A stretch of DNA of 31,927 nt from Promethearchaeia archaeon (GTDB lineage: Archaea; Asgardarchaeota; Lokiarchaeia; Sigyniarchaeales; SOKP01). Both the position numbers and the translations under genes were made by a program. The stretch is from contig JAHQWH010000115.1 in NCBI GenBank assembly GCA_029856105.1, positions 1-31,927 on the forward strand, written 5' to 3'. Under the pieces are notes generated by a model, which saw nothing but the letters and a program-made list of their open reading frames with translations, was not told where the DNA came from and did no database searches. Each line of letters opens with the position of its first letter. Position 1 is the stretch's first letter. Of this stretch, positions 8,807 to 28,567 are shown in pieces.

Positions 8807-8970
8807 TCTCCGATGAAGACATTGAATAGAAATAAATAAATTAAACAAGGAGTTCTGAAATAGACAATTAATTGCCTAAATACATAAAATTTTTATTTTT
8901 TCTCGTATTTTTCTTCTCAATTATTGAAAATGAATCAAATAAAAATAAAATTATTTTAAGTGAATTTACA

Positions 8971-11223
8971 ATGGTTAAAGTAAAGAACCCCGACGAGATA
9001 GCGCAACTCATAACTACCGGTTCATACGAAAAGAAACGGTTATTTAGCATAGTAGCGCATATAGATCACGGTAAAACAACAGCAAGTGATTACTTGTTAA
9101 GGCGTGCAGGTTTAATGAGGGAAGAAGACGCCGGGCAACTTCAGATGACCGATTCTGATGAAGAAGAACAGGCAAGAGGCATAACAATATTTACGAGCGT
9201 AGTTTTACTTGCATTTAATGACCCTAGAAAGCCTGATGATGATGAGCCATATATTCTTCAAATCAATGATACGCCGGGACATATCTCCTTTACTGGAGAA
9301 GTCTCACGTGCTCTTAGAGGGAGTGACGGTGCTATAATTCTCGTCGATGCTTTAGAAGGGGTTATGACTCAAACTGAAACAAACATCCGATTAGCCGTTG
9401 GTGAAGAGTATTGCAAACCAGTTCTTTTTATCAATAAGGTAGATCGTTTAATTAGCGAGCTTAAGTTGAGTCCACAAGACACATTTATGAAAATTGATAA
9501 AATTTCAAAACAAGTAAATGAGCTAATTAAAAAGATTAGACCAGAAGGATCTAAATGGGGCGTTGATTTTGCTAAAAACAGCGTAGCTGTAGGGTCCGCT
9601 AAGCACGGATGGGGTTTTACGTACGAAATATTATTAGAAAAAGGTTTAAAACCACAAGATGTTTTCGCAAAATATACCGAAGGAGACATTCAATGGTTAA
9701 GAGATAATCTTCCACTTGACGAGCCAATGTTAAGAATGGTAGTCGATCATTTGCCCAATCCTGTGGAAGCAGCAAAATATAGGATACCTCATGTTTGGGG
9801 CGGTGATCTCAGTTCAGAACTAGGACAATCGCTTCAGAAGAGTGATCCGAACGGTCCTTTATACGGTATGATTACCAAAATATTTTTAGATCCAAGGAGA
9901 GGATATCAACCAACCTTAATAGGTAGGGTTTTTTCTGGAACGTTCCGACTATCGGACGCTATATATTTGGTAAATAACAGAAGTAGTAATCGAGTAAAAC
10001 GATTGGGGGTCATGGAAATTACAGATCTATTAGATATCCCAAAAATTCCCGCAGGAAATTTATTTGCTTTATACGGTTTTATTTGTCCCTCTGGAGAGAC
10101 ATTTATGGCAGCCAGTGATGTCCCAAAGGATAAAAATGAAGCTAAACTTCTGCCGTCTTTTGAAAAAATCCAATATGCGTGCGAACCCGTAGTTTCAAGA
10201 AGTATAAAACCACGAGACCCTCACGAAATCGACAAATTAGATACGGTAGTAAGTAAGTGGCTTCAAGCAGATCCTACTGCGATGTATCGGCGGGACAAAG
10301 AATCTGGAGAATTCATTCTAAGTGGAATAGATCCGCTTCAAATTGAAATCCTTACCAAACGGATTAATATTCAAGTTCCTATCATAATCGGTGAACCAAT
10401 TATCGTGTACCGAGAAAAAATCACCAAGAAAAGCAAACTATTCCATACTAAATCTGCCAATACTCACAACCGAATCTTGTTATACATAGAGCCTCTAGAT
10501 GAAACAACTGAGAAATTAATCGAAACTGGAAAAATCACTGATTTGATGAATGATAAAGATAGAGCAAAAACTTTAAGGGAAGACGCAGGTTGGGACGCTA
10601 AAGAAGCTAGACGCATAGTAGATGTTTACCAAGGAAGCTTACTTGTGAACGGTACATCTGGTTTACAACGATTTGATAAAGTAAAATCTTATCTAGTAGC
10701 CGCTTTTAGAGATTGGCTTGGAGAGTGTATTCTTGCAAAAGAACCAGCTGCGGGTTTTAAAGTAGTATTTACAGATATGACCATCCACGAGGACACACGA
10801 CATACTTCCTACGGACAAATTGCTGGAATGGCTTCTTCTGCTATGTCTTTAGCAATGTTGGAAGCCGATCCTCATCTTTTTGAACCTATTCAGAGAATTG
10901 ATGTGAAAACACCAGATGGATCAGAAGGACCAGTGAATGCGATTATAACAAAGCGACGGGGTAGAATTACGAACGTAATTCCAGAAGGCGAATATGTTAG
11001 AGTTCAGGGTACGATTCCTGCCGCTGAAACGATTGGTATAGCTGATGATATACGAGGTTCAACTCAAGGACGTGCGTTCTTCGGATACGAATTTGATGGT
11101 TTTGATAAAGTACCTAAAAGTCTAGAAGAAGATTTAATTCTTGAAATCCGTAAACGCAAAAACATGCCTGATCATCTACCTAATTCTTCAAGCTGGGATC
11201 GATTTATTTACAAGAAAACCTAA
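8971..11223 (+). CDS. fusA: Archaeal translation elongation factor 2 (EF-2 family; may be the canonical copy or a paralog)
   Basis: AHIDHGKTT, EQARGITI, DTPGH, NKVD, GSAKHGWG, LFEPIQ, IRGSTQGRA, EIRKRK. ATG 8971 (750 aa) is preferred because the 33 codons from TTG 8872 are AT-rich and do not resemble EF-2. Confidence 0.93.
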   Translation: MVKVKNPDEIAQLITTGSYEKKRLFSIVAHIDHGKTTASDYLLRRAGLMREEDAGQLQMTDSDEEEQARGITIFTSVVLLAFNDPRKPDDDEPYILQINDTPGHISFTGEVSRALRGSDGAIILVDALEGVMTQTETNIRLAVGEEYCKPVLFINKVDRLISELKLSPQDTFMKIDKISKQVNELIKKIRPEGSKWGVDFAKNSVAVGSAKHGWGFTYEILLEKGLKPQDVFAKYTEGDIQWLRDNLPLDEPMLRMVVDHLPNPVEAAKYRIPHVWGGDLSSELGQSLQKSDPNGPLYGMITKIFLDPRRGYQPTLIGRVFSGTFRLSDAIYLVNNRSSNRVKRLGVMEITDLLDIPKIPAGNLFALYGFICPSGETFMAASDVPKDKNEAKLLPSFEKIQYACEPVVSRSIKPRDPHEIDKLDTVVSKWLQADPTAMYRRDKESGEFILSGIDPLQIEILTKRINIQVPIIIGEPIIVYREKITKKSKLFHTKSANTHNRILLYIEPLDETTEKLIETGKITDLMNDKDRAKTLREDAGWDAKEARRIVDVYQGSLLVNGTSGLQRFDKVKSYLVAAFRDWLGECILAKEPAAGFKVVFTDMTIHEDTRHTSYGQIAGMASSAMSLAMLEADPHLFEPIQRIDVKTPDGSEGPVNAIITKRRGRITNVIPEGEYVRVQGTIPAAETIGIADDIRGSTQGRAFFGYEFDGFDKVPKSLEEDLILEIRKRKNMPDHLPNSSSWDRFIYKKT

Positions 11224-11656: not shown

Positions 11657-12217
11657 TTATGTTTTAGTTTTAAAGTAAAGGTCTCTAACTAATTTTTGAA
11701 ATGCTTCAATAACACCTTGACCTGTTAATGCGCTTGTTTTAAAATATCCAATGAAATTATGATCTTTCGAATATTTTCCAACGTTGAAATCAGAATTTAC
11801 TTTATCCTCGTTTAGAGCTAAATCTTTCTCATCAATTAAATCGATCTTATTTCCAAATAGTGCAATTGGAATGTTTCCACAATATTCATTAAGTTCTTTA
11901 AGCCATTTATCAATGTGATCAAAACTCGTTATTTCTTCGGTTGCTTGAGAAAATACAATAATTGCAGCGCTACTTCCATTATAAAACTTACTACGCATTG
12001 TTTCAAAAACATCTTGCCCCGCGATGTCCCATAAATATAATTTAATTTGGTTTCCTTCTACAATCTCTTCGTATTTCGAAAACTGGGCGCCTAGAGTGGC
12101 GATATAATCCTTTTGAAACGATCCAGTAGTATACTTTTTAACTAAAGTTGTTTTTCCAACGGAGGGATCTCCCACTACGGTTATCTTAAATTTATACTCT
12201 TTTTCTTCGTTTGACAT
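11657..12217 (-). CDS. Rab/Ras-like small GTPase (eukaryotic signature protein)
   Basis: G1 GDPSVGKT, G2 YIATLG, G3 WDIAGQ, G4 GNKID, G5 TSALTG. No C-terminal Cys prenylation motif. Confidence 0.95.
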   Translation of the reverse strand: MSNEEKEYKFKITVVGDPSVGKTTLVKKYTTGSFQKDYIATLGAQFSKYEEIVEGNQIKLYLWDIAGQDVFETMRSKFYNGSSAAIIVFSQATEEITSFDHIDKWLKELNEYCGNIPIALFGNKIDLIDEKDLALNEDKVNSDFNVGKYSKDHNFIGYFKTSALTGQGVIEAFQKLVRDLYFKTKT

Positions 12218-13972: not shown

Positions 13973-15262
13973 TTATGGTGTTGTTATTTTTGGGTTTTTG
14001 TCTTTATCCCAATTTACAGCAAACAAAAAGTCCCTACTTGCCTTATTTGTGTATATTAAAGAAAAGCCTCCAATCTCTTCGAACTTTAGAGCTAATTCTT
14101 CTAAATATTCATATTCTGGGAAGTAATATTGAAGTGTTTTATCGCTTTTTAGCCTTTCGTTGATCTTAAGAGCTTTTGCTTGTAAAGTAAATCCTTTTAT
14201 TTCAAAAAAATTTGGATTAGCTTTATCAATTAATTTAATATAGTCCTTTATGTAATTTTCAGATAAATTTAAGTTTTTTACAGCTGTTATTCTTATTAAA
14301 CTTCTACAAGACAAACTTTCAACTAAATCTAAGGTGTCTGATATTTTACCCCACCCATTTTTAATCATAGGGCGGCAAACTTTTTTATACACCGTCTCGT
14401 TTGGTGCAGGTAAGGTTATATACAGTTGGGAAGGTAACGAATTTAAACTTTCAATCTTTTCTGGTAGCGTTCCATTAGTTACAATAAATGAAGTCATGTT
14501 GCGATTCCGGAATTCTTCGACCAATCCACCTATTTTGGGATACAATAGCGGTTCACCATCAAGCGATATTGCTGCGTGATTTGGATTCATTGCTTCGCCA
14601 TGAACCTGCATTATCTCATCAGGAGTCGTTAATGCTAAATTGAATAGCTTTACGATTTCGTCTCGTGAATCAATACAGCATGAAATCTCTTTCTCGATTC
14701 TATAATTTTTCAAAGAATCATCTATAGCCGTAATAAATCCTTGATTTTTTAGTAAATTAACAGCGCGGTTAACTTTGTTTTTACTTACATGAAGTTTTCT
14801 CGAAAGTGAATTTGTATTATGCTCTTCATCGTTTGATAACATAAAATTGAGCATATCCACCATAATTTCGTAATTTTCAAGATATCTCCTTAATGGCAAA
14901 TGATTTTTTATAATATCACGCTGATGACGGATCATTTCATCAACTAGATCTTTTGGCTCGTCCGGTTCAACAATAAATTCACCACCTAAACTTCCTTCTT
15001 CAATATCTCTCCAACAAAAAACGCATTGGTGGTTGCAGAACGGCATAGAAGGAGTATTTTGTAAACACCTGTGGCTTTGAATTCCAAAAACTCCTTTATA
15101 ACAATTTCGATTATCTCTACCTGTTAATAATTTTTGTTCTAACCAATGACAAGGTTTAATTGCAGTGTGCTTGTTCCTACCTAATATGCGATATGTCGTT
15201 TTTGTGTATTTTTCAACAAAATCGTTTGTAATTCTATTATTAACAATGTATCGGTTTTTCAT
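13973..15262 (-). CDS. taw1: 4-demethylwyosine synthase Taw1/TYW1 (radical SAM) with an internal insertion
   Basis: HTAIKPCHW, CYK, SHRCLQNTP, radical SAM motif CNHQCVFCWR, HAAISLDGEPLLYP, FIVTNGT, SQLYITL, PNFFEIKG. Confidence 0.93.
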   Translation of the reverse strand: MKNRYIVNNRITNDFVEKYTKTTYRILGRNKHTAIKPCHWLEQKLLTGRDNRNCYKGVFGIQSHRCLQNTPSMPFCNHQCVFCWRDIEEGSLGGEFIVEPDEPKDLVDEMIRHQRDIIKNHLPLRRYLENYEIMVDMLNFMLSNDEEHNTNSLSRKLHVSKNKVNRAVNLLKNQGFITAIDDSLKNYRIEKEISCCIDSRDEIVKLFNLALTTPDEIMQVHGEAMNPNHAAISLDGEPLLYPKIGGLVEEFRNRNMTSFIVTNGTLPEKIESLNSLPSQLYITLPAPNETVYKKVCRPMIKNGWGKISDTLDLVESLSCRSLIRITAVKNLNLSENYIKDYIKLIDKANPNFFEIKGFTLQAKALKINERLKSDKTLQYYFPEYEYLEELALKFEEIGGFSLIYTNKASRDFLFAVNWDKDKNPKITTP

Positions 15263-20778: not shown

Positions 20779-21453
20779 TTATATAGGCAATTTTTTATTA
20801 AAAATAAGATCTAGATCCTCAATTAATTTTTTTTTTGTAAGTTCAAAGCCCTTGCGAAGTACATTTACAATAATATTCCTTCCTGCAGGAACATCTAAAA
20901 TATTATCGTCTTGTTCTACGACTGCAATGCCCTCGTCGTTATAATCTAGTTGACGCATTAGAGCTTGAAGCGCTTTTTCTTTAGTTTTAAAAGTAGCTAT
21001 TGATAATTCGTTGTAATCTTTTACTTCTTCATTAACCTGTAAAAATAATATACACTCCTCTAATTGCGAAATAAATAATTTTTTTGTAATATCTTTTAGT
21101 TTTTTATAGTGTTTATGATTTTTTTTACACTGCCTATCTGTTTGGTCATTTTTTAAGTAGCTTGGAAATTTTCTATTAATAACATCATCAAATTTTTCTT
21201 TGGAAATGTCTCCATTTTCTACAAGTAATTTAGCAGAATCTAGCGTGATATTTATCTGTTTCAATGTGCCTACGCGGGCTTCATTATCGCTCCAATACTT
21301 ATAAAAAGATTTTACGATAGGTTTTATAACAAAATTCAATAATCCCACATTTAATTCTGAATCAATTAACTCTCTTCCAATATTAAGAGATATATCAGTT
21401 TGTGCTATCATTCTTTGTTCTACAATATTATAATTCCTTTGGACATAACTCAT
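20779..21453 (-). CDS. Hypothetical protein, tandem paralog of 21576-22232
   Basis: 224-aa ORF with GGAG upstream of ATG; alignable end to end with its neighbour. Confidence 0.85.
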   Translation of the reverse strand: MSYVQRNYNIVEQRMIAQTDISLNIGRELIDSELNVGLLNFVIKPIVKSFYKYWSDNEARVGTLKQINITLDSAKLLVENGDISKEKFDDVINRKFPSYLKNDQTDRQCKKNHKHYKKLKDITKKLFISQLEECILFLQVNEEVKDYNELSIATFKTKEKALQALMRQLDYNDEGIAVVEQDDNILDVPAGRNIIVNVLRKGFELTKKKLIEDLDLIFNKKLPI

Positions 21454-21575: not shown

Positions 21576-22232
21576 TTAGATGTAAGTATCGCCTATAGCT
21601 TCAATAAATTCATCCTTTGTTACTTCAAACCCTTTTCTTAGCGCTTTAATAATGATTTTCTTACCAGTTGGTAACGAAAGAATAGATGGATCCTCTTCAA
21701 TAATTTTAATTCCATTTTCAGTAAGTTCTAATTGCTTCATTAAATTACTAGTTGCTATTTCTTTTGTTTTAAATGCAGCTCTACAAAGGTCTCCATAATC
21801 TTTTACATCCTCTTTAACTTCTAAAAAAGTTTTAACTTCTTTTAGATAATTGATGAATGTGTCTTTTGAATTGATTTTTAACTTCTCATAGTTTTTATGA
21901 TGTTTGCTACATTGATAAGTAACTTGATCATATTTTAAAAAATTAGGAAAATTTTCTTCAATAATGTTATTAAAACCTGCTTCAGAATTGCCGTTTAGTA
22001 ACAATTTCTTTCCGGCCTCTAGGGAGATATTTATTTGTTTTAATGTACCTTTTCTCGCATCGTGTTGTGCCCAATAATCATAAAACGCTTTTACGATAGG
22101 TCGTACTATAAAATTCAAGATTCCCGTATCTAATTCACTATCAATTAGCTTTCTTCCTAAGGCGAGCGAATTTTCCATTTGAAAAATCATTCGCTCTTTC
22201 ACAATGCTATAATTCCGTTCTAAATAATCCAA
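21576..22232 (-). CDS. Hypothetical protein, tandem paralog of 20779-21453
   Basis: 218-aa ORF with a TTG start preceded by GGGGA. Shares RNY, LIDSEL, GTLKQINI, DQ...QC.K.HK.Y and LRKGFE with its neighbour. Confidence 0.85.
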   Translation of the reverse strand: MDYLERNYSIVKERMIFQMENSLALGRKLIDSELDTGILNFIVRPIVKAFYDYWAQHDARKGTLKQINISLEAGKKLLLNGNSEAGFNNIIEENFPNFLKYDQVTYQCSKHHKNYEKLKINSKDTFINYLKEVKTFLEVKEDVKDYGDLCRAAFKTKEIATSNLMKQLELTENGIKIIEEDPSILSLPTGKKIIIKALRKGFEVTKDEFIEAIGDTYI

Positions 22233-22448: not shown

Positions 22449-25400
22449 ATGCGTTACATCTTTAAAACTCTCTTATTGGGTTTAGATGGAGAAGCTATTT
22501 CTTTTTACGCTCTTAGAGCATTCGGAGAAGAGGGTGAAAATAAAGGAGCGTATTTGGAGTTATATAAGGAAGTAAAAGCATTCGAGGACATTTGCGATTT
22601 AGAAGTAGACGCAATAACCGATGTTATTAACGCAGATTTTGATGAAATCATTCCTACTGCGGACGGAATCATTTTTTTCGTAAACCCTACTCAAAAAGAA
22701 GAGGCTGAATTTTTCGATATTATATTACCTATTATTAAATCTGTTAAAAGGAATATCCCCATTATTTTAATGTACTACGATCAACAAGGAATTTTCCCTA
22801 TATCTATAAATGAATTGTTAGAAAATCTTTGGTTCAAATATCTCGATGTAGAAGCATTTGTTAATCTTCCCCCAAAAGAATTCCACCAAGTTTTGCAGTG
22901 TTTGTGCGTAGCAATGATAACGGGAATGTCTCCTCTTAACATTGAAAACGCGTGGATGAGGTTTCCCATTTATATCCAGCTAGCAAATATTTTTTTTAAA
23001 AAAGCAGAAAAAGAGCTCAAACCTGAATTTTATTTTTTTGCTGCCCAAGCCATTAAAAAAGCTGCGATAATTGCTGATATATTAGATAAAGAGGAATTTT
23101 ACATAATGTGCGAGCAAGCAGCTTTTCTCTATTCAAAAGTTAAGTTATATTTAGATGCTTCACAAATTTTACAAAATGTAGATAAAAGAAAATCGGAAAA
23201 CTTCAAGAAGTTATATGCTGATAGTATGGTTTTAGAAGGTAATAAATTATTTAATAAAAGACAATACGATCTTGCGGCAAGGCAGTACTTGGCAGCGGCT
23301 CAATGGTCGTCAATAGAACTCAAAGATAAGGATTTGCGGGATGAATCTTTTCTTTTAGCAATTAACTCTTGGATTTCTGCTTGTAAAGTTGAAAATGCGT
23401 TCAAAATTATTAATAGTCTCCCCCACGAAAAAACACTTCTTATCCTAAGTGAAATTCCTCAAAAAATTATTGCAATGGCAGATTATTTAATTAAAGAAAA
23501 GAAATATTTAGCTGTCCGCGAGCAATTGTATAGGGCAGTCTCCGAATACCAACAAGAAGGTTTATTTGATGAATTAGAAAAATTCACTTCTAAGTTAACT
23601 GAAGTCTTAAAAACATTATTAAAACAACAGGTTAAGGAAGAAAAGAGGTTTTTTGCAAAGCAATCTTATGATGAGATCGAAAATCTTTGGGAAACTTATA
23701 ACGTTAAAAAATCAAATGTAGACTCTCAGTTAGAAAATTTAATTAAATTATTCTTAGACAATCTTGATTTTGGCAACGCTACAATTTTAATTAATAAATT
23801 AAATTCCTTGTCAGTAAAGAAAAAATTAACGAAATTAAGCTCTAAAGTTGAAGATGAAAATAAGGAATTAATAAAGAAGGAAATAGAAGAAAATATTGAG
23901 AAAGGTGTGGAAATTCTAAACGGTTTCATAGAAAAGGAGTTAGAAATTTTTACAGAAATTAACACCCTAATAATTCAAGAAGCTAATTTATTAATTGAAA
24001 ACAACGATTATCCAAAAGCCGCTAATCTGGTGAAAACTCAAGCAGATTTTTTCAAACGAATTGCTAGGGAAGATATTCAAAATCAAATGTTAAAAAAAAA
24101 CTTAGATATCCTCTTAATCGGTAAAATTTTCGATCAATTTTTTAAAGTGTATTACGAATTATCAAAGAGAACAAAAAAGGAGTATTTAAAGAATAAACTT
24201 GTTATTATCATAAAAAAATTAAATGAAATTGTAGAGGAACGAGATTACGAAGAAAATGAAGAAATATTTGAACTTTTTATCTCAATTTTTAGAGAACAAA
24301 TGTTATACGAGCAATCTAAGGAAATTAGTCAAATCTTTATAGATTCAATCAAAACCGAAGGACTAAAAATTGCCGAAAGTGGCGAAGATAAACTTGTCAT
24401 CGAAGCTTCACTGAAATTAATTAAAAAAGCTACAGATATTTCGTTAGCATATATGGAAAAACCTGAATTGAGCTTCAATAATATTTATAAAAGGATTACA
24501 GAAATATATATAACCTTAGATGATTTATCTTCCGCTCATGCTATTAACGATAAAATCGACGATAAATGGCTTAAAGCTGAACTTAATAAGAAAATCGAAA
24601 ATCTCGAGGCTAAAAAAAGCGCCATCGTTGTTAAGAAAGCCGAAGAAACTTTTGAAGGGGAGGTTTTAAAAGAAAAACTCTCGATAATTCAGAACAAAGC
24701 AAGAGAGGCGCTCCATGACAAGGAAAGGGAATTCAAACAGAGAAAAGCCTTAAAAAGGGCCTATTTTATTGACGCGTTAGCGTATTTGAGTACGCAAGAT
24801 TTAGATAATGCCATAGAGAAATATAAAGAAAGCATAAAGCGTTTAATTAAAATAAAAAAATATAATTTAGCAGGCGTTTCTTTAGCAGTACTTTTTTTAT
24901 TGCTTAATAAACTAAATAAGATTGAAGATATTAACAACATTTTAATACGCGCAAAAACTAGTTTATCGAGTTTAGAAAAATCATTTACTGAAACTTTTCC
25001 AGTATCTTTGGTTGAATACCTTATAGAAATCGAGAAATTAAACGATCCTGTTGTGTTGAACGAATCAATACAGTTTATGGAAAATTTACCATTATTTGAA
25101 GAAGAAACCCTCCTAATTTCTGAAATCTTAGGCAAGTCACATAAAATAATTAGTGAACTTGAAGATTTGAAAAAGCAAATTATTGAAGTCGAGAAATTAA
25201 AAGTTAAAATTAACGAAATCGCTAAAAGTATACAAAAAGAAAGGAAAGATGTTGCAAGAAGAAAATTAATGAGAGATCAATATTGGAAATTAGCCTTAGA
25301 GGATCTTTCTAACAAAAAATTTCAAGTAGCCATGAACGAATATAGTGATACAATTCCTAAATTGCTGGAAAAAAAATTTTATAAGCAAGCTTCAATAAGT

Positions 25401-26192
25401 CTGATATTAAGCACGTTTTTAATTGTAAAAACAAAGGGCGCATCATTAGCTAAATCCTATTTAAATGATAAACTAGCGAATAATAAAGAATACGACCTTG
25501 AAGATATGCCGGAGATACAAATCACAAAAGAGCTTCTTTTAGCGTTAGATAACAATGTTTTAGAAATAGTAGATTTATGTTTAGAACTCTTAATAGATAA
25601 ATTAACTCTTTTTGACCCTGAGATCTTATTACTAGAATCTCTTTTACCCGAAAAAAAAGAACTGGTAGAAACAGAAGTAAAATTAACGCGGAAAGAGGTA
25701 GGCGAACAAAAACTACTTAATATAGAAATGGATCAAATAAAGGGTAAATTGCAGCAAAAAATGGGAGACATTAGGAGAGAAAAAGAAGAATTTTTAAAGA
25801 AACGTAGCGTAATGAAAAAGAGATATTACAAAGATGTAATTATATCTCTCGAAAGTTACTCATTTAAAAAGACGGGTCTACAATATCTCGAACTAGCAAA
25901 AACAATATCAAAAAGAAAAGACCTTAGAACCAGTTCGCTATTAATTCTTTTACACGGATTGTCCCTTCTAAAAGCAAACGAGCCGATTAAGGAAATACAA
26001 ACAAACATTAAAAACTTTCTTGACTCATTAGGTTTAAATAAGCAATTAGTAGAAGATACATTTCATATTACTCTCATAAAATTTTACCTGGATATGATTT
26101 CACATAATCTTGATAAATATCTTCCACATATTAGAGAAATGTTAGAATTATTACCACTATTTGAAGAAGAAAAACAGTTAATTGAAATTTAA
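22449..26192 (+). CDS. Large protein: degenerate small-GTPase-like N-terminal domain plus alpha-helical (SNAP/TPR-like) solenoid with three C-terminal repeats
   Basis: YIFKTLLLG, TADGIIFFVN and NIPIILM follow Ras-fold strand order without GKT/DxxG/NKxD. The remainder is helical with TPR-like patterns such as LFNKRQYDLAARQYLAAAQW. Confidence 0.75.
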   Translation: MRYIFKTLLLGLDGEAISFYALRAFGEEGENKGAYLELYKEVKAFEDICDLEVDAITDVINADFDEIIPTADGIIFFVNPTQKEEAEFFDIILPIIKSVKRNIPIILMYYDQQGIFPISINELLENLWFKYLDVEAFVNLPPKEFHQVLQCLCVAMITGMSPLNIENAWMRFPIYIQLANIFFKKAEKELKPEFYFFAAQAIKKAAIIADILDKEEFYIMCEQAAFLYSKVKLYLDASQILQNVDKRKSENFKKLYADSMVLEGNKLFNKRQYDLAARQYLAAAQWSSIELKDKDLRDESFLLAINSWISACKVENAFKIINSLPHEKTLLILSEIPQKIIAMADYLIKEKKYLAVREQLYRAVSEYQQEGLFDELEKFTSKLTEVLKTLLKQQVKEEKRFFAKQSYDEIENLWETYNVKKSNVDSQLENLIKLFLDNLDFGNATILINKLNSLSVKKKLTKLSSKVEDENKELIKKEIEENIEKGVEILNGFIEKELEIFTEINTLIIQEANLLIENNDYPKAANLVKTQADFFKRIAREDIQNQMLKKNLDILLIGKIFDQFFKVYYELSKRTKKEYLKNKLVIIIKKLNEIVEERDYEENEEIFELFISIFREQMLYEQSKEISQIFIDSIKTEGLKIAESGEDKLVIEASLKLIKKATDISLAYMEKPELSFNNIYKRITEIYITLDDLSSAHAINDKIDDKWLKAELNKKIENLEAKKSAIVVKKAEETFEGEVLKEKLSIIQNKAREALHDKEREFKQRKALKRAYFIDALAYLSTQDLDNAIEKYKESIKRLIKIKKYNLAGVSLAVLFLLLNKLNKIEDINNILIRAKTSLSSLEKSFTETFPVSLVEYLIEIEKLNDPVVLNESIQFMENLPLFEEETLLISEILGKSHKIISELEDLKKQIIEVEKLKVKINEIAKSIQKERKDVARRKLMRDQYWKLALEDLSNKKFQVAMNEYSDTIPKLLEKKFYKQASISLILSTFLIVKTKGASLAKSYLNDKLANNKEYDLEDMPEIQITKELLLALDNNVLEIVDLCLELLIDKLTLFDPEILLLESLLPEKKELVETEVKLTRKEVGEQKLLNIEMDQIKGKLQQKMGDIRREKEEFLKKRSVMKKRYYKDVIISLESYSFKKTGLQYLELAKTISKRKDLRTSSLLILLHGLSLLKANEPIKEIQTNIKNFLDSLGLNKQLVEDTFHITLIKFYLDMISHNLDKYLPHIREMLELLPLFEEEKQLIEI

Positions 26193-27118
26193 AAACTACT
26201 AGCTATTGTACTTTTTGCAAATTTCATGAGATCTTTTACTCGCATCCTTAAAGTAACTTCGGTAACGCGGGCTAACTTGCTAATCTCTTTCTGAGTGCGA
26301 TTTTCATTACAACTCCTAGATCCAATATAAATAGCCGCAGCGGCTATCCCTTTCGGGTCTTTTCCCGCAGAATTAAAACCGTTTTCGGCGGCAGTTTCAA
26401 TAATTTTAACAGCTATATTTCTACATTGCATAGATAGCTTCAACTCGGAGTTAAATCTATCTACATATCTATCAGGGGTAAAATGTTGCACCTTCAGATT
26501 TAATTTTGGTAAAATTTCCATCAATATTAATCTATAGCTCTTAATCACTTTCTTTTTTGGTATTTGGGCGACTTTTGTAATTTCTTCCACAGTTCGAGGG
26601 ATGCCATGCACTCTTAATGCGCAAAATATTGAAGCAGCGAGTAGAGTATCGATACTTCTCCCCATCGTTAACTTTTTCTTTACGGTTTGTGTATAAATTC
26701 TTAGCGCATCCTCAGCTACGGTATCTGAAATACCTAATCTTTTTTGTAACCTTTGTAAGTTAGGTAACGCAATCCATAAATTTCTCTCGTAGCTAGTAGT
26801 TAAGGATCTATGAATTTTAGCCAGCCTATTGAATTTAGATTTGTATTTTGGGCTTAATAAAATCCCCCGTGCGTCTCTACTACCCCTTATAATCGTTCGT
26901 GGTCCTATAGGACTATAAACTCTTTCGTTACTCTTCCTTTTTTGGATTTCTTCTTGCGTAAAAGCTCTTCGAGGTGAATCGTCAAGAATTCTGTCATACA
27001 CTAAACCACAATTCAAACAGACGTAGAAACCAAGTTCCTTACTGATTTTTGGAGAGTCGCAGCAATACTCCTCTTCCTCCTTGTCAACATTTCCTTTATC
27101 GTTAGAATTTGGTTGCAT
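26189..27118 (-). CDS. tfb: Transcription initiation factor IIB (TFB), divergent paralog-like
   Basis: N-terminal zinc ribbon (CC...VCLNCGLV), ERNL..AL, two cyclin repeats GRSIDTLLAASIF and GKDPKGIAAAAIY, C-terminal HTH RTQKEISKLARVTEVTLR. Confidence 0.93.
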   Translation of the reverse strand: MQPNSNDKGNVDKEEEEYCCDSPKISKELGFYVCLNCGLVYDRILDDSPRRAFTQEEIQKRKSNERVYSPIGPRTIIRGSRDARGILLSPKYKSKFNRLAKIHRSLTTSYERNLWIALPNLQRLQKRLGISDTVAEDALRIYTQTVKKKLTMGRSIDTLLAASIFCALRVHGIPRTVEEITKVAQIPKKKVIKSYRLILMEILPKLNLKVQHFTPDRYVDRFNSELKLSMQCRNIAVKIIETAAENGFNSAGKDPKGIAAAAIYIGSRSCNENRTQKEISKLARVTEVTLRMRVKDLMKFAKSTIASSF

Positions 27119-27322: not shown

Positions 27323-28567
27323 ATGTCGTTCGATATCTCAAAAGTATTAAATGTCTTCTCAAAATTTCTAGACCCAAAAGTAGTCAAAATTGGCAAACTC
27401 AAAACCATTGAAGAAATAAAAAATTTACCAATATACTCTTATAAATTTCTTACAAAAAGCGAAGCTAAAGTTCTAAAGGATATTTTAGATATATCTAATA
27501 TCGAAGAAGCTTCCAAATTAGACAAGGAAAATCCCTTTGAAAGTTTAAATAATATTGGTTCAACTAAAGACCCTATTAAAGCCGCCGAAATCCAAGACGA
27601 ATTGAATGAAAAAATCGTAGTACTTAAAGAGAAATACCCCGAACTTGAAGATAGCTTAAAAAAAGCAATTGTTATTAGTTCTATAATTACCAGAGTCGTA
27701 GATGAAGAAGATAGTCTAGAAAAAGCAGCGCAGAAAATAATAATAATTGGGTTAGATAATGCGGGAAAGACGGCAATATTGAACAAATTTGGAGGACGGT
27801 TAGGTATTAACGATTTAGCTAACTTAAAACCAACTAAAGGTGTAGATCGTCGGTTTGTTAAAACCGAAGATTCTGAATTGGATCTTTATGTCTGGGATAT
27901 GGGGGGTCAAGAACAATACAGGAGTAAGTACATACAAAATCCAGAACAATATTTTTTGAATATTGATTTATTGATCTATGTAATTGATGTGCAAGACTCT
28001 AATAGGTTCGTAGAATCTTTTGAGTATTTTGAACAAATTCTTAAAATTTTAGCCCTCATAGAAGAAGAACCTTTTATTTTAATATACATACACAAATGCG
28101 ACCCGGATTTAAAATACGACCCTGAAACATTACTAAAGATCGAACTTCTAAAAGAAAACCTCAATCAGTTATTAACTCAGTACGGATTCGATTATGAAGC
28201 TTATTTAACTTCCATCTTTTCATTAATCTCTACCGAACCTAAGTTTTCTAAATACATCAAAGAAGTAATGAGATCAACAGACTCGTTAACTAACCCAACT
28301 TTAAAAAAGGTTGAAGGTCTGGGAAAAACTTTAGAAGAAACTATGAACGCGGTTATACGCTTATCAGAAAGTCTTTCCAAACAATTGTCTGAATTAGATA
28401 ACAGATTACGCGTAATTGAAAGCGGAGCGTTTCAAATGGCTCAAAGCGGAATCCCAATTGGAATTGCCAACCCTAATATGGCGTCAGAAAACCCAGCAGA
28501 TTCCAGATCAACCGTTTTAAATGAATTGAAACAATTATTTGAAAAAAAACGTAAATTAAACCTTTAG
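27323..28567 (+). CDS. Arf/Rag-like small GTPase with N-terminal extension and C-terminal coiled coil
   Basis: GLDNAGKT, PTKG, WDMGGQ, LIYVIDVQD, HKCD, TSIF; helical flanking regions. Confidence 0.88.
   Translation: MSFDISKVLNVFSKFLDPKVVKIGKLKTIEEIKNLPIYSYKFLTKSEAKVLKDILDISNIEEASKLDKENPFESLNNIGSTKDPIKAAEIQDELNEKIVVLKEKYPELEDSLKKAIVISSIITRVVDEEDSLEKAAQKIIIIGLDNAGKTAILNKFGGRLGINDLANLKPTKGVDRRFVKTEDSELDLYVWDMGGQEQYRSKYIQNPEQYFLNIDLLIYVIDVQDSNRFVESFEYFEQILKILALIEEEPFILIYIHKCDPDLKYDPETLLKIELLKENLNQLLTQYGFDYEAYLTSIFSLISTEPKFSKYIKEVMRSTDSLTNPTLKKVEGLGKTLEETMNAVIRLSESLSKQLSELDNRLRVIESGAFQMAQSGIPIGIANPNMASENPADSRSTVLNELKQLFEKKRKLNL

Follow-up and report, generated by a model that had tools for sequence, protein, structure and literature searches.

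A predicted pseudo-GTPase-headed helical scaffold conserved across one order of Lokiarchaeia

The large subunits of eukaryotic TRAPP complexes run to about 1100-1250 amino acids, a scale similar to that of the archaeal protein described here. In yeast Trs85, Trs120 and Trs130 and in TRAPPC8-11, the N-terminal domain resembles a GTPase but binds no nucleotide, and an alpha-solenoid comes directly after it (PMC10152722, PMC9106297, PMC8204860). Class i pseudoGTPases, which include the pseudoGTPase domain (psGD) of AAGAB, CENP-M, the pG1 and pG2 domains of p190RhoGAP and the fungal dynein light intermediate chain, retain a Ras fold with all G motifs lost (PMC5593906, PMC11565788), and the AAGAB domain contacts its partner with the side that faces away from the nucleotide pocket (PMC11565788). 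A further point of reference is the SNAP family, in which the C-terminal half suffices to stimulate NSF (PMC2139964). We analysed a 31,927-nucleotide stretch (contig JAHQWH010000115.1, hereafter the window) of the 3.66-Mb genome of a Promethearchaeia archaeon (Asgardarchaeota; Lokiarchaeia), in which an open reading frame at 22449..26192 on the forward strand encodes a 1247-residue protein with features of all three.

We favour the view, with a probability of roughly 0.62, that this protein is a cytosolic, non-enzymatic, multivalent protein-binding scaffold. The observations behind it are computational and concern the fold of head and tail, the loss of all G motifs, internal duplications, and retention in single copy across one order. 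A sequence-only reading of the locus had proposed a long helical scaffold headed by a defunct Ras-fold domain, and the family profile, the predicted model, the fold search and a motif count over 180 sequences all agree with that proposal. The Ras-like and helical motifs it quoted lie where it placed them, and its start at 22449 is right, but its end at 23700 corresponds only to residue ~417 of a frame that reaches 26192. The gene is divided as follows.

22449..26192, + strand: whole gene (P0001), encoding a soluble protein with no transmembrane segment (maximum 19-residue hydropathy 1.62)
22449..22928, + strand: head, residues 1-160, a predicted Ras/Rab-fold pseudo-GTPase, strongly acidic, with a P-loop ~5 residues shorter and no G1, G3, G4 or G5
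22929..23207, + strand: residues 161-253, a conserved linker (W169, R171, P173) and the first helical hairpins
23208..23864, + strand: TPR-like alpha-solenoid unit A, residues 254-472, modelled to residue 400
23952..24620, + strand: solenoid unit A', residues 502-724, an internal duplicate of unit A judged from sequence (hhalign 98.2%, E 3e-14, 218 columns)
24672..25121, + strand: module R1, residues 742-891, with a predicted basic lead helix, one TPR-like pair and a SNAP-type capping bundle
25230..25646, + strand: module R2, residues 928-1066, the module most often missing from two-module members
25734..26186, + strand: module R3, residues 1096-1246, at the protein's end

The predicted model of the head contains a complete G-domain fold of six strands and five helices in the exact Ras order (beta1-alpha1-beta2-beta3-alpha2-beta4-alpha3-beta5-alpha4-beta6-alpha5), and it lies close to Rabs (root-mean-square deviation 2.4-3.0), as had been anticipated for residues 1-160. 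Its landmarks are beta1 at residues 3-11, the G1 position at 11-18, beta3 at 50-56, beta4 at 70-79, beta5 at 102-108 and the string MYYD at 108-111. When the family profile was compared with the genome's 4260 open reading frames, small GTPases made up 15 of the top 20 non-self matches (hypergeometric p 3e-24), and among 1.84 billion representatives the 11 examined non-family matches at the tail of the list are all Ras-type GTPases (E 2e-5 to 6e-4). An Asgard Rab-like small GTPase is the likely source of the head, given the profile alignment between the two (hhalign 96.4%, E 1.4e-9). An Arf/Rag origin was rejected, at 17% versus 96% for Rab-like, and the Arf-reminiscent GLD string proved lineage-specific. 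Single-sequence searches of Pfam and PDB gave nothing significant, the head profile drew just weak septin, Rab21 and RagA hints from the same databases, and Atlas features of residues 1-480 recovered the cluster of the protein itself along with weak clusters of GTPases.

The motif GK[ST] occurs in 0 of 180 head domains versus 40 of 40 controls. No P-loop lysine or Mg-binding serine or threonine is found among the 180 heads, [WYL]DxxG[QH] is absent, and stray matches to G-motif patterns sit at wrong positions. The earlier claim that the nucleotide motifs are gone is borne out for G1, G3 and G4, and G5 is lacking as well, although its remark that DxxG is missing does not hold literally: such a string is present at residues 111-114, at the position of G4 and not of G3. 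Conservation is lowest in the P-loop (0.37) and switch I (0.36) and stands at 0.56-0.63 in beta1, beta4 and the alpha3-beta5 loop. The head carries a net charge of -16.3 +/- 3.3 (165 members), versus +1.0 +/- 4.0 for the archaea's own Rab-like domains. By its sequence the head would be classed as a class i pseudoGTPase, defined by a GTPase fold with degraded G motifs, and it probably no longer binds nucleotide or switches. Family searches found no relative that combines intact G motifs with the same architecture.

Residues 161-400 form helical hairpins in the predicted model and give weak TPR_2 matches; the helical pairs pointed out earlier lie at residues 198-240 and 273-286. The SNAP likeness proposed for this region is weak for residues 165-400, which score 71-73% by hhalign against an Asgard SNAP-like profile versus 17-55% against a TPR control and gave no SNAP match in a profile search. 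The solenoid body thus does not appear more SNAP-like than TPR-like with any certainty. It is in the three C-terminal modules, beyond the coordinates first considered, that the SNAP likeness is real.

Residues 740-1247 are all-helical in the model, in which low-confidence linkers join the modules (predicted template modelling score 0.39 at a predicted local distance difference test score of 89). The three modules, each of ~140-150 residues, are mutually homologous (hhalign 98.7-99.7%) and finish with an acidic motif, and R1 and R3 are net basic. Three modules are present in 116 proteins and two in 46. SNAPs are their best structural matches, with the alignment falling at the C-terminal end of alpha-SNAP, gamma-SNAP and Sec17, and Rpn6, CSN subunits, HAP40 and Get4 rank immediately below. 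In profile comparison the modules reach 97% against the C-terminal half of an Asgard SNAP-like domain versus 41% against a TPR control, and the profile of that Asgard domain in turn matches gamma-SNAP at E 4e-11. The models accordingly place the SNAP C-terminal repeat pair plus helical bundle in the modules. The Pfam family PF14938 is matched by 6 of 73, with a best E of 0.0045, which falls short of the Pfam cut-off, and its search gave no match at this locus; Atlas features of R2 fall with SNAP-bearing clusters at 0.85-0.89, which we treat as a lead only.

Related domains occur elsewhere in Asgard archaea. One family of 415-475 residues (L087:1240-2544, in G000 C194; L089-L091, L100-L103, L105, L107), the source of the profile that matches gamma-SNAP, has a SNAP-like N-terminal domain alongside one or two immunoglobulin (Ig)-like domains. 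Proteins of 155-390 residues from other Asgard groups (L092-L099, L104, L106) carry a single copy of the scaffold's SNAP-type module at the C-terminus, often preceded by a proline-rich linker.

The gene is single copy and carried by all four families of the order. A strong match, one per genome, was found in 53 of 61 relatives, and 144 of 161 genomes of the class have matches (39 of 40 when restricted to good-quality genomes). Of seven genomes from other orders, six were blank and one gave a weak match (E 3e-5), and in a phylum sample of 200 genomes strong module matches are confined to the order. Whole homologues span 1067-1293 residues, and homologues bear the names of Lokiarchaeota/Promethearchaeota proteins. 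Orthologues are present in the cultured Promethearchaeum syntrophicum (DSAG12_01390, QEE15564.1) and Ca. Lokiarchaeum ossiferum (NEF87_003838, UYP47553.1), where they are annotated as hypothetical or TPR proteins; the literature searched contained no paper citing either. The published expression value of the orthologue in MK-D1 is 202 reads per kilobase per million mapped reads, similar to all its neighbours. The one RNA run assembles into 31-kb contigs of flat depth, and a promoter scan, of a kind unsuited to archaea, gave chance-level results. Individual orthologues depart from the common form. In one (L040, in G052 C225) a TAG interrupts the frame after 259 residues, and one assembly lists it as partial proteins, its cluster-mates being whole; of two others (L037:6648-10043; P0126), one has a divergent tail with no recognisable modules at the threshold used and another a 133-residue N-terminal extension.

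We propose that the ancestor of this Lokiarchaeia order joined a Rab-like GTPase to helical repeat units, some of which would be modules from an Asgard SNAP-like pool. The head would cap the solenoid as a fixed acidic unit, resting on it with the face opposite the old pocket. That face would hold the conserved Y3, D72, G73, R101, P104 and W128, together with W169 and R171 of the linker, a placement derived from Ras topology and not from coordinates. The sequence-only reading saw the head as an interaction hub and likened the protein to eukaryotic tethering, coat or fusion factors; both would be putative roles. The old nucleotide and switch-I face is the least conserved part of the head, so partner binding by it, if any, is probably not GTPase-like. 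The duplicated solenoid may act as a spacer, and each of the two or three loosely linked modules may recognise an identical or similar protein surface; since they would add avidity, one module could be lost. The head's conserved acidity could let it dock onto a basic partner, perhaps the lead helices of the modules, which are basic. What is said here of partners, of the charge and of any link to membranes is inference.

Several other explanations deserve weight. The protein could be a tether leg like a TRAPP large subunit, its dead GTPase forming a membrane-proximal foot and its solenoid spacing a longin/roadblock-type guanine nucleotide exchange factor or coat from the membrane. Trs85, Trs120 and Trs130 offer the precedent for this layout, and the host has dozens of Rab-like GTPases. 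We nevertheless regard it as unlikely: the TRAPP-domain PF04051 was found in 0 of 5 carrier genomes versus all 3 Asgard controls, which belong to another family (a sample only), the tail is all-helical without Ig domains, the gene family is limited to one order, and the head is strongly acidic and resembles ordinary Rabs, without the insertions reported for Trs85. The TRAPP models PF11817, PF23036, PF08626 and PF12739 had no match at orthologous loci, although PF12739 matched nowhere at all and its result is therefore uninformative. TRAPP chains were likewise missing from the top of the fold searches, but Rabs filled those places, with one chain shown per entry, so their absence does not exclude TRAPP likeness. 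A quite doubtful proposal is a fused multi-SNAP adaptor, with tandem modules recruiting a Cdc48-type AAA ATPase to a substrate on the head and solenoid as the C-terminal halves of SNAPs recruit NSF. The modules do match the NSF-stimulating half of SNAPs (PMC2139964), aligning to the C-terminal end of alpha-SNAP, gamma-SNAP and Sec17, they end in an acidic motif, and the genome encodes three Cdc48-like ATPases with N domains. They lack the N-terminal SNAP repeats, however, R1 and R3 are net basic, the SNARE family PF05739 had no match over cut-off in five host genomes, and the recurrence of this module across many unrelated Asgard architectures suggests a binding unit of general use.

A combination of these ideas, in which the protein would be the scaffold of an archaeal membrane-remodelling or disassembly machine, uniting a TRAPP-like dead-GTPase leg with tandem SNAP-type modules that recruit a Cdc48-type ATPase, is similarly a long shot; if it held, Asgard cells in culture would contain a functioning prokaryotic counterpart of what tethers and SNAPs do. 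It is very unlikely that the protein is instead a PCI-like or proteostasis scaffold, with a lid-, CSN- or GET4-like role, and that the SNAP likeness is mere shared superhelix-plus-cap geometry. Rpn6, CSN subunits, HAP40 and Get4 do follow the SNAPs in the structural ranking, and weak Get4 and CSN4 profile matches exist (E 0.03-0.3), but no module is followed by a winged-helix domain and the sequence link passes through Asgard SNAP-like proteins. Least credible is an atypical yet active nucleotide-binding switch: the complete, Rab-like fold would suit it, but the P-loop is partly deleted, lysine and the Mg-binding serine or threonine are missing from all 180 sequences, and the pocket region is poorly conserved in a domain of net charge -16.

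The sequence-only reading had also joined the gene in one system with a nearby paralog pair and an Arf/Rag-like GTPase. The gene stands alone, with a divergent neighbour upstream and a convergent TFB gene downstream.

21576..22232, - strand: paralog-pair member in divergent orientation (second member at 20779-21453), a conserved neighbour in three families
26189..27118, - strand: convergent gene for TFB, with a 4-bp overlap at the stop codon, lying between the scaffold gene and the Arf/Rag GTPase
27323..28567, + strand: intact Arf/Rag-like GTPase, a neighbour mainly in one family

Such a system is unsupported. The GTPase, beyond the TFB gene, belongs in the window's family to a conserved block of ~20 genes that includes housekeeping genes, and it is absent from most examined loci of other families; with 68 small-GTPase-like open reading frames in the genome, ~0.6 are expected per 32 kb by chance. 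The paralog pair is a local duplication from a wider-ranging, multi-copy family that also occurs in genomes without the scaffold gene. Only three of the four families keep one gene of the pair upstream, two of them with intervening genes.

Other features of these loci may be recorded here. The paralogs, ~220 residues each, belong to no known family, and their relatives are multi-copy across the class (up to six matches per genome). The Arf/Rag-like GTPase (window 27323-28567; L116) has a 130-residue N-terminal extension and a helical tail, and one relative carries three tandem copies. Families f2 and f3 (L025:4346-4786; also the corresponding loci among L023-L034) have, in divergent orientation immediately before the orthologue, an uncharacterised conserved gene of ~140 residues and a winged-helix gene; neither occupies that position in the window's family. 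Elsewhere in the window, a radical-SAM gene resembling Taw1/TYW1 (13973-15262) has by eye an apparent helix-turn-helix insertion near residues 130-190, and an EF-2-like gene (8872-11223) without the usual diphthamide-loop sequence is presumably like the Asgard aEF-2p paralogue. The genome's three full Cdc48-like ATPases (L129, L130, L131) are accompanied by a shorter one.

The scaffold family is real and conserved, and it is unpublished as far as the literature searched shows, no paper there dealing with either an Asgard pseudo-GTPase or this gene family. That almost every genome of the order keeps exactly one copy hints at a core function. Asgard archaea seem to have arrived, apparently independently, at the plan that eukaryotes use in TRAPP, a solenoid headed by a pseudo-GTPase, here derived from a Rab-like GTPase, and to have combined it with SNAP-type modules. 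As the family is limited to one Lokiarchaeia order, it would represent a parallel experiment and not a likely eukaryotic ancestor, and its orthologues in cultured species make a pre-SNARE role of SNAP-type modules directly testable.

The scaffold is not a member of the SNAP family and probably not of the TRAPP family. It shares with the TRAPP large subunits the order of a GTPase-fold domain and an alpha-solenoid directly after it, but its tail consists of SNAP-type helical modules where TRAPP has four Ig domains; Ig-like domains are found in C9, C10 and metazoan C8, whereas yeast Trs85, like the scaffold, lacks them. It differs further in the lack of a profile match, in a compact, acidic, Rab-like head, and in hosts of which the five searched yielded no TRAPP core. 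Like class i pseudoGTPases, it concentrates conservation away from the old pocket; unlike them, it is archaeal and its head is fused to a 1090-residue helical part, and the likeness is one of fold and motif loss, with non-binding predicted only. Its modules best match the C-terminal half of SNAPs structurally (gamma-SNAP 2IFU, alpha-SNAP, Sec17 1QQE; PF14938) and are linked by profile to Asgard SNAP-like domains, but they comprise just the last repeat pair and cap, in two or three tandem copies with a basic lead helix, in place of the full 290-residue twisted sheet; they stay below the Pfam cut-off, and no SNARE was found in the five hosts searched. Asgard Rab-like small GTPases (for example window 11657-12217; G000 C10:16905-17435), in contrast to the head, keep G1-G5 and a near-neutral charge.
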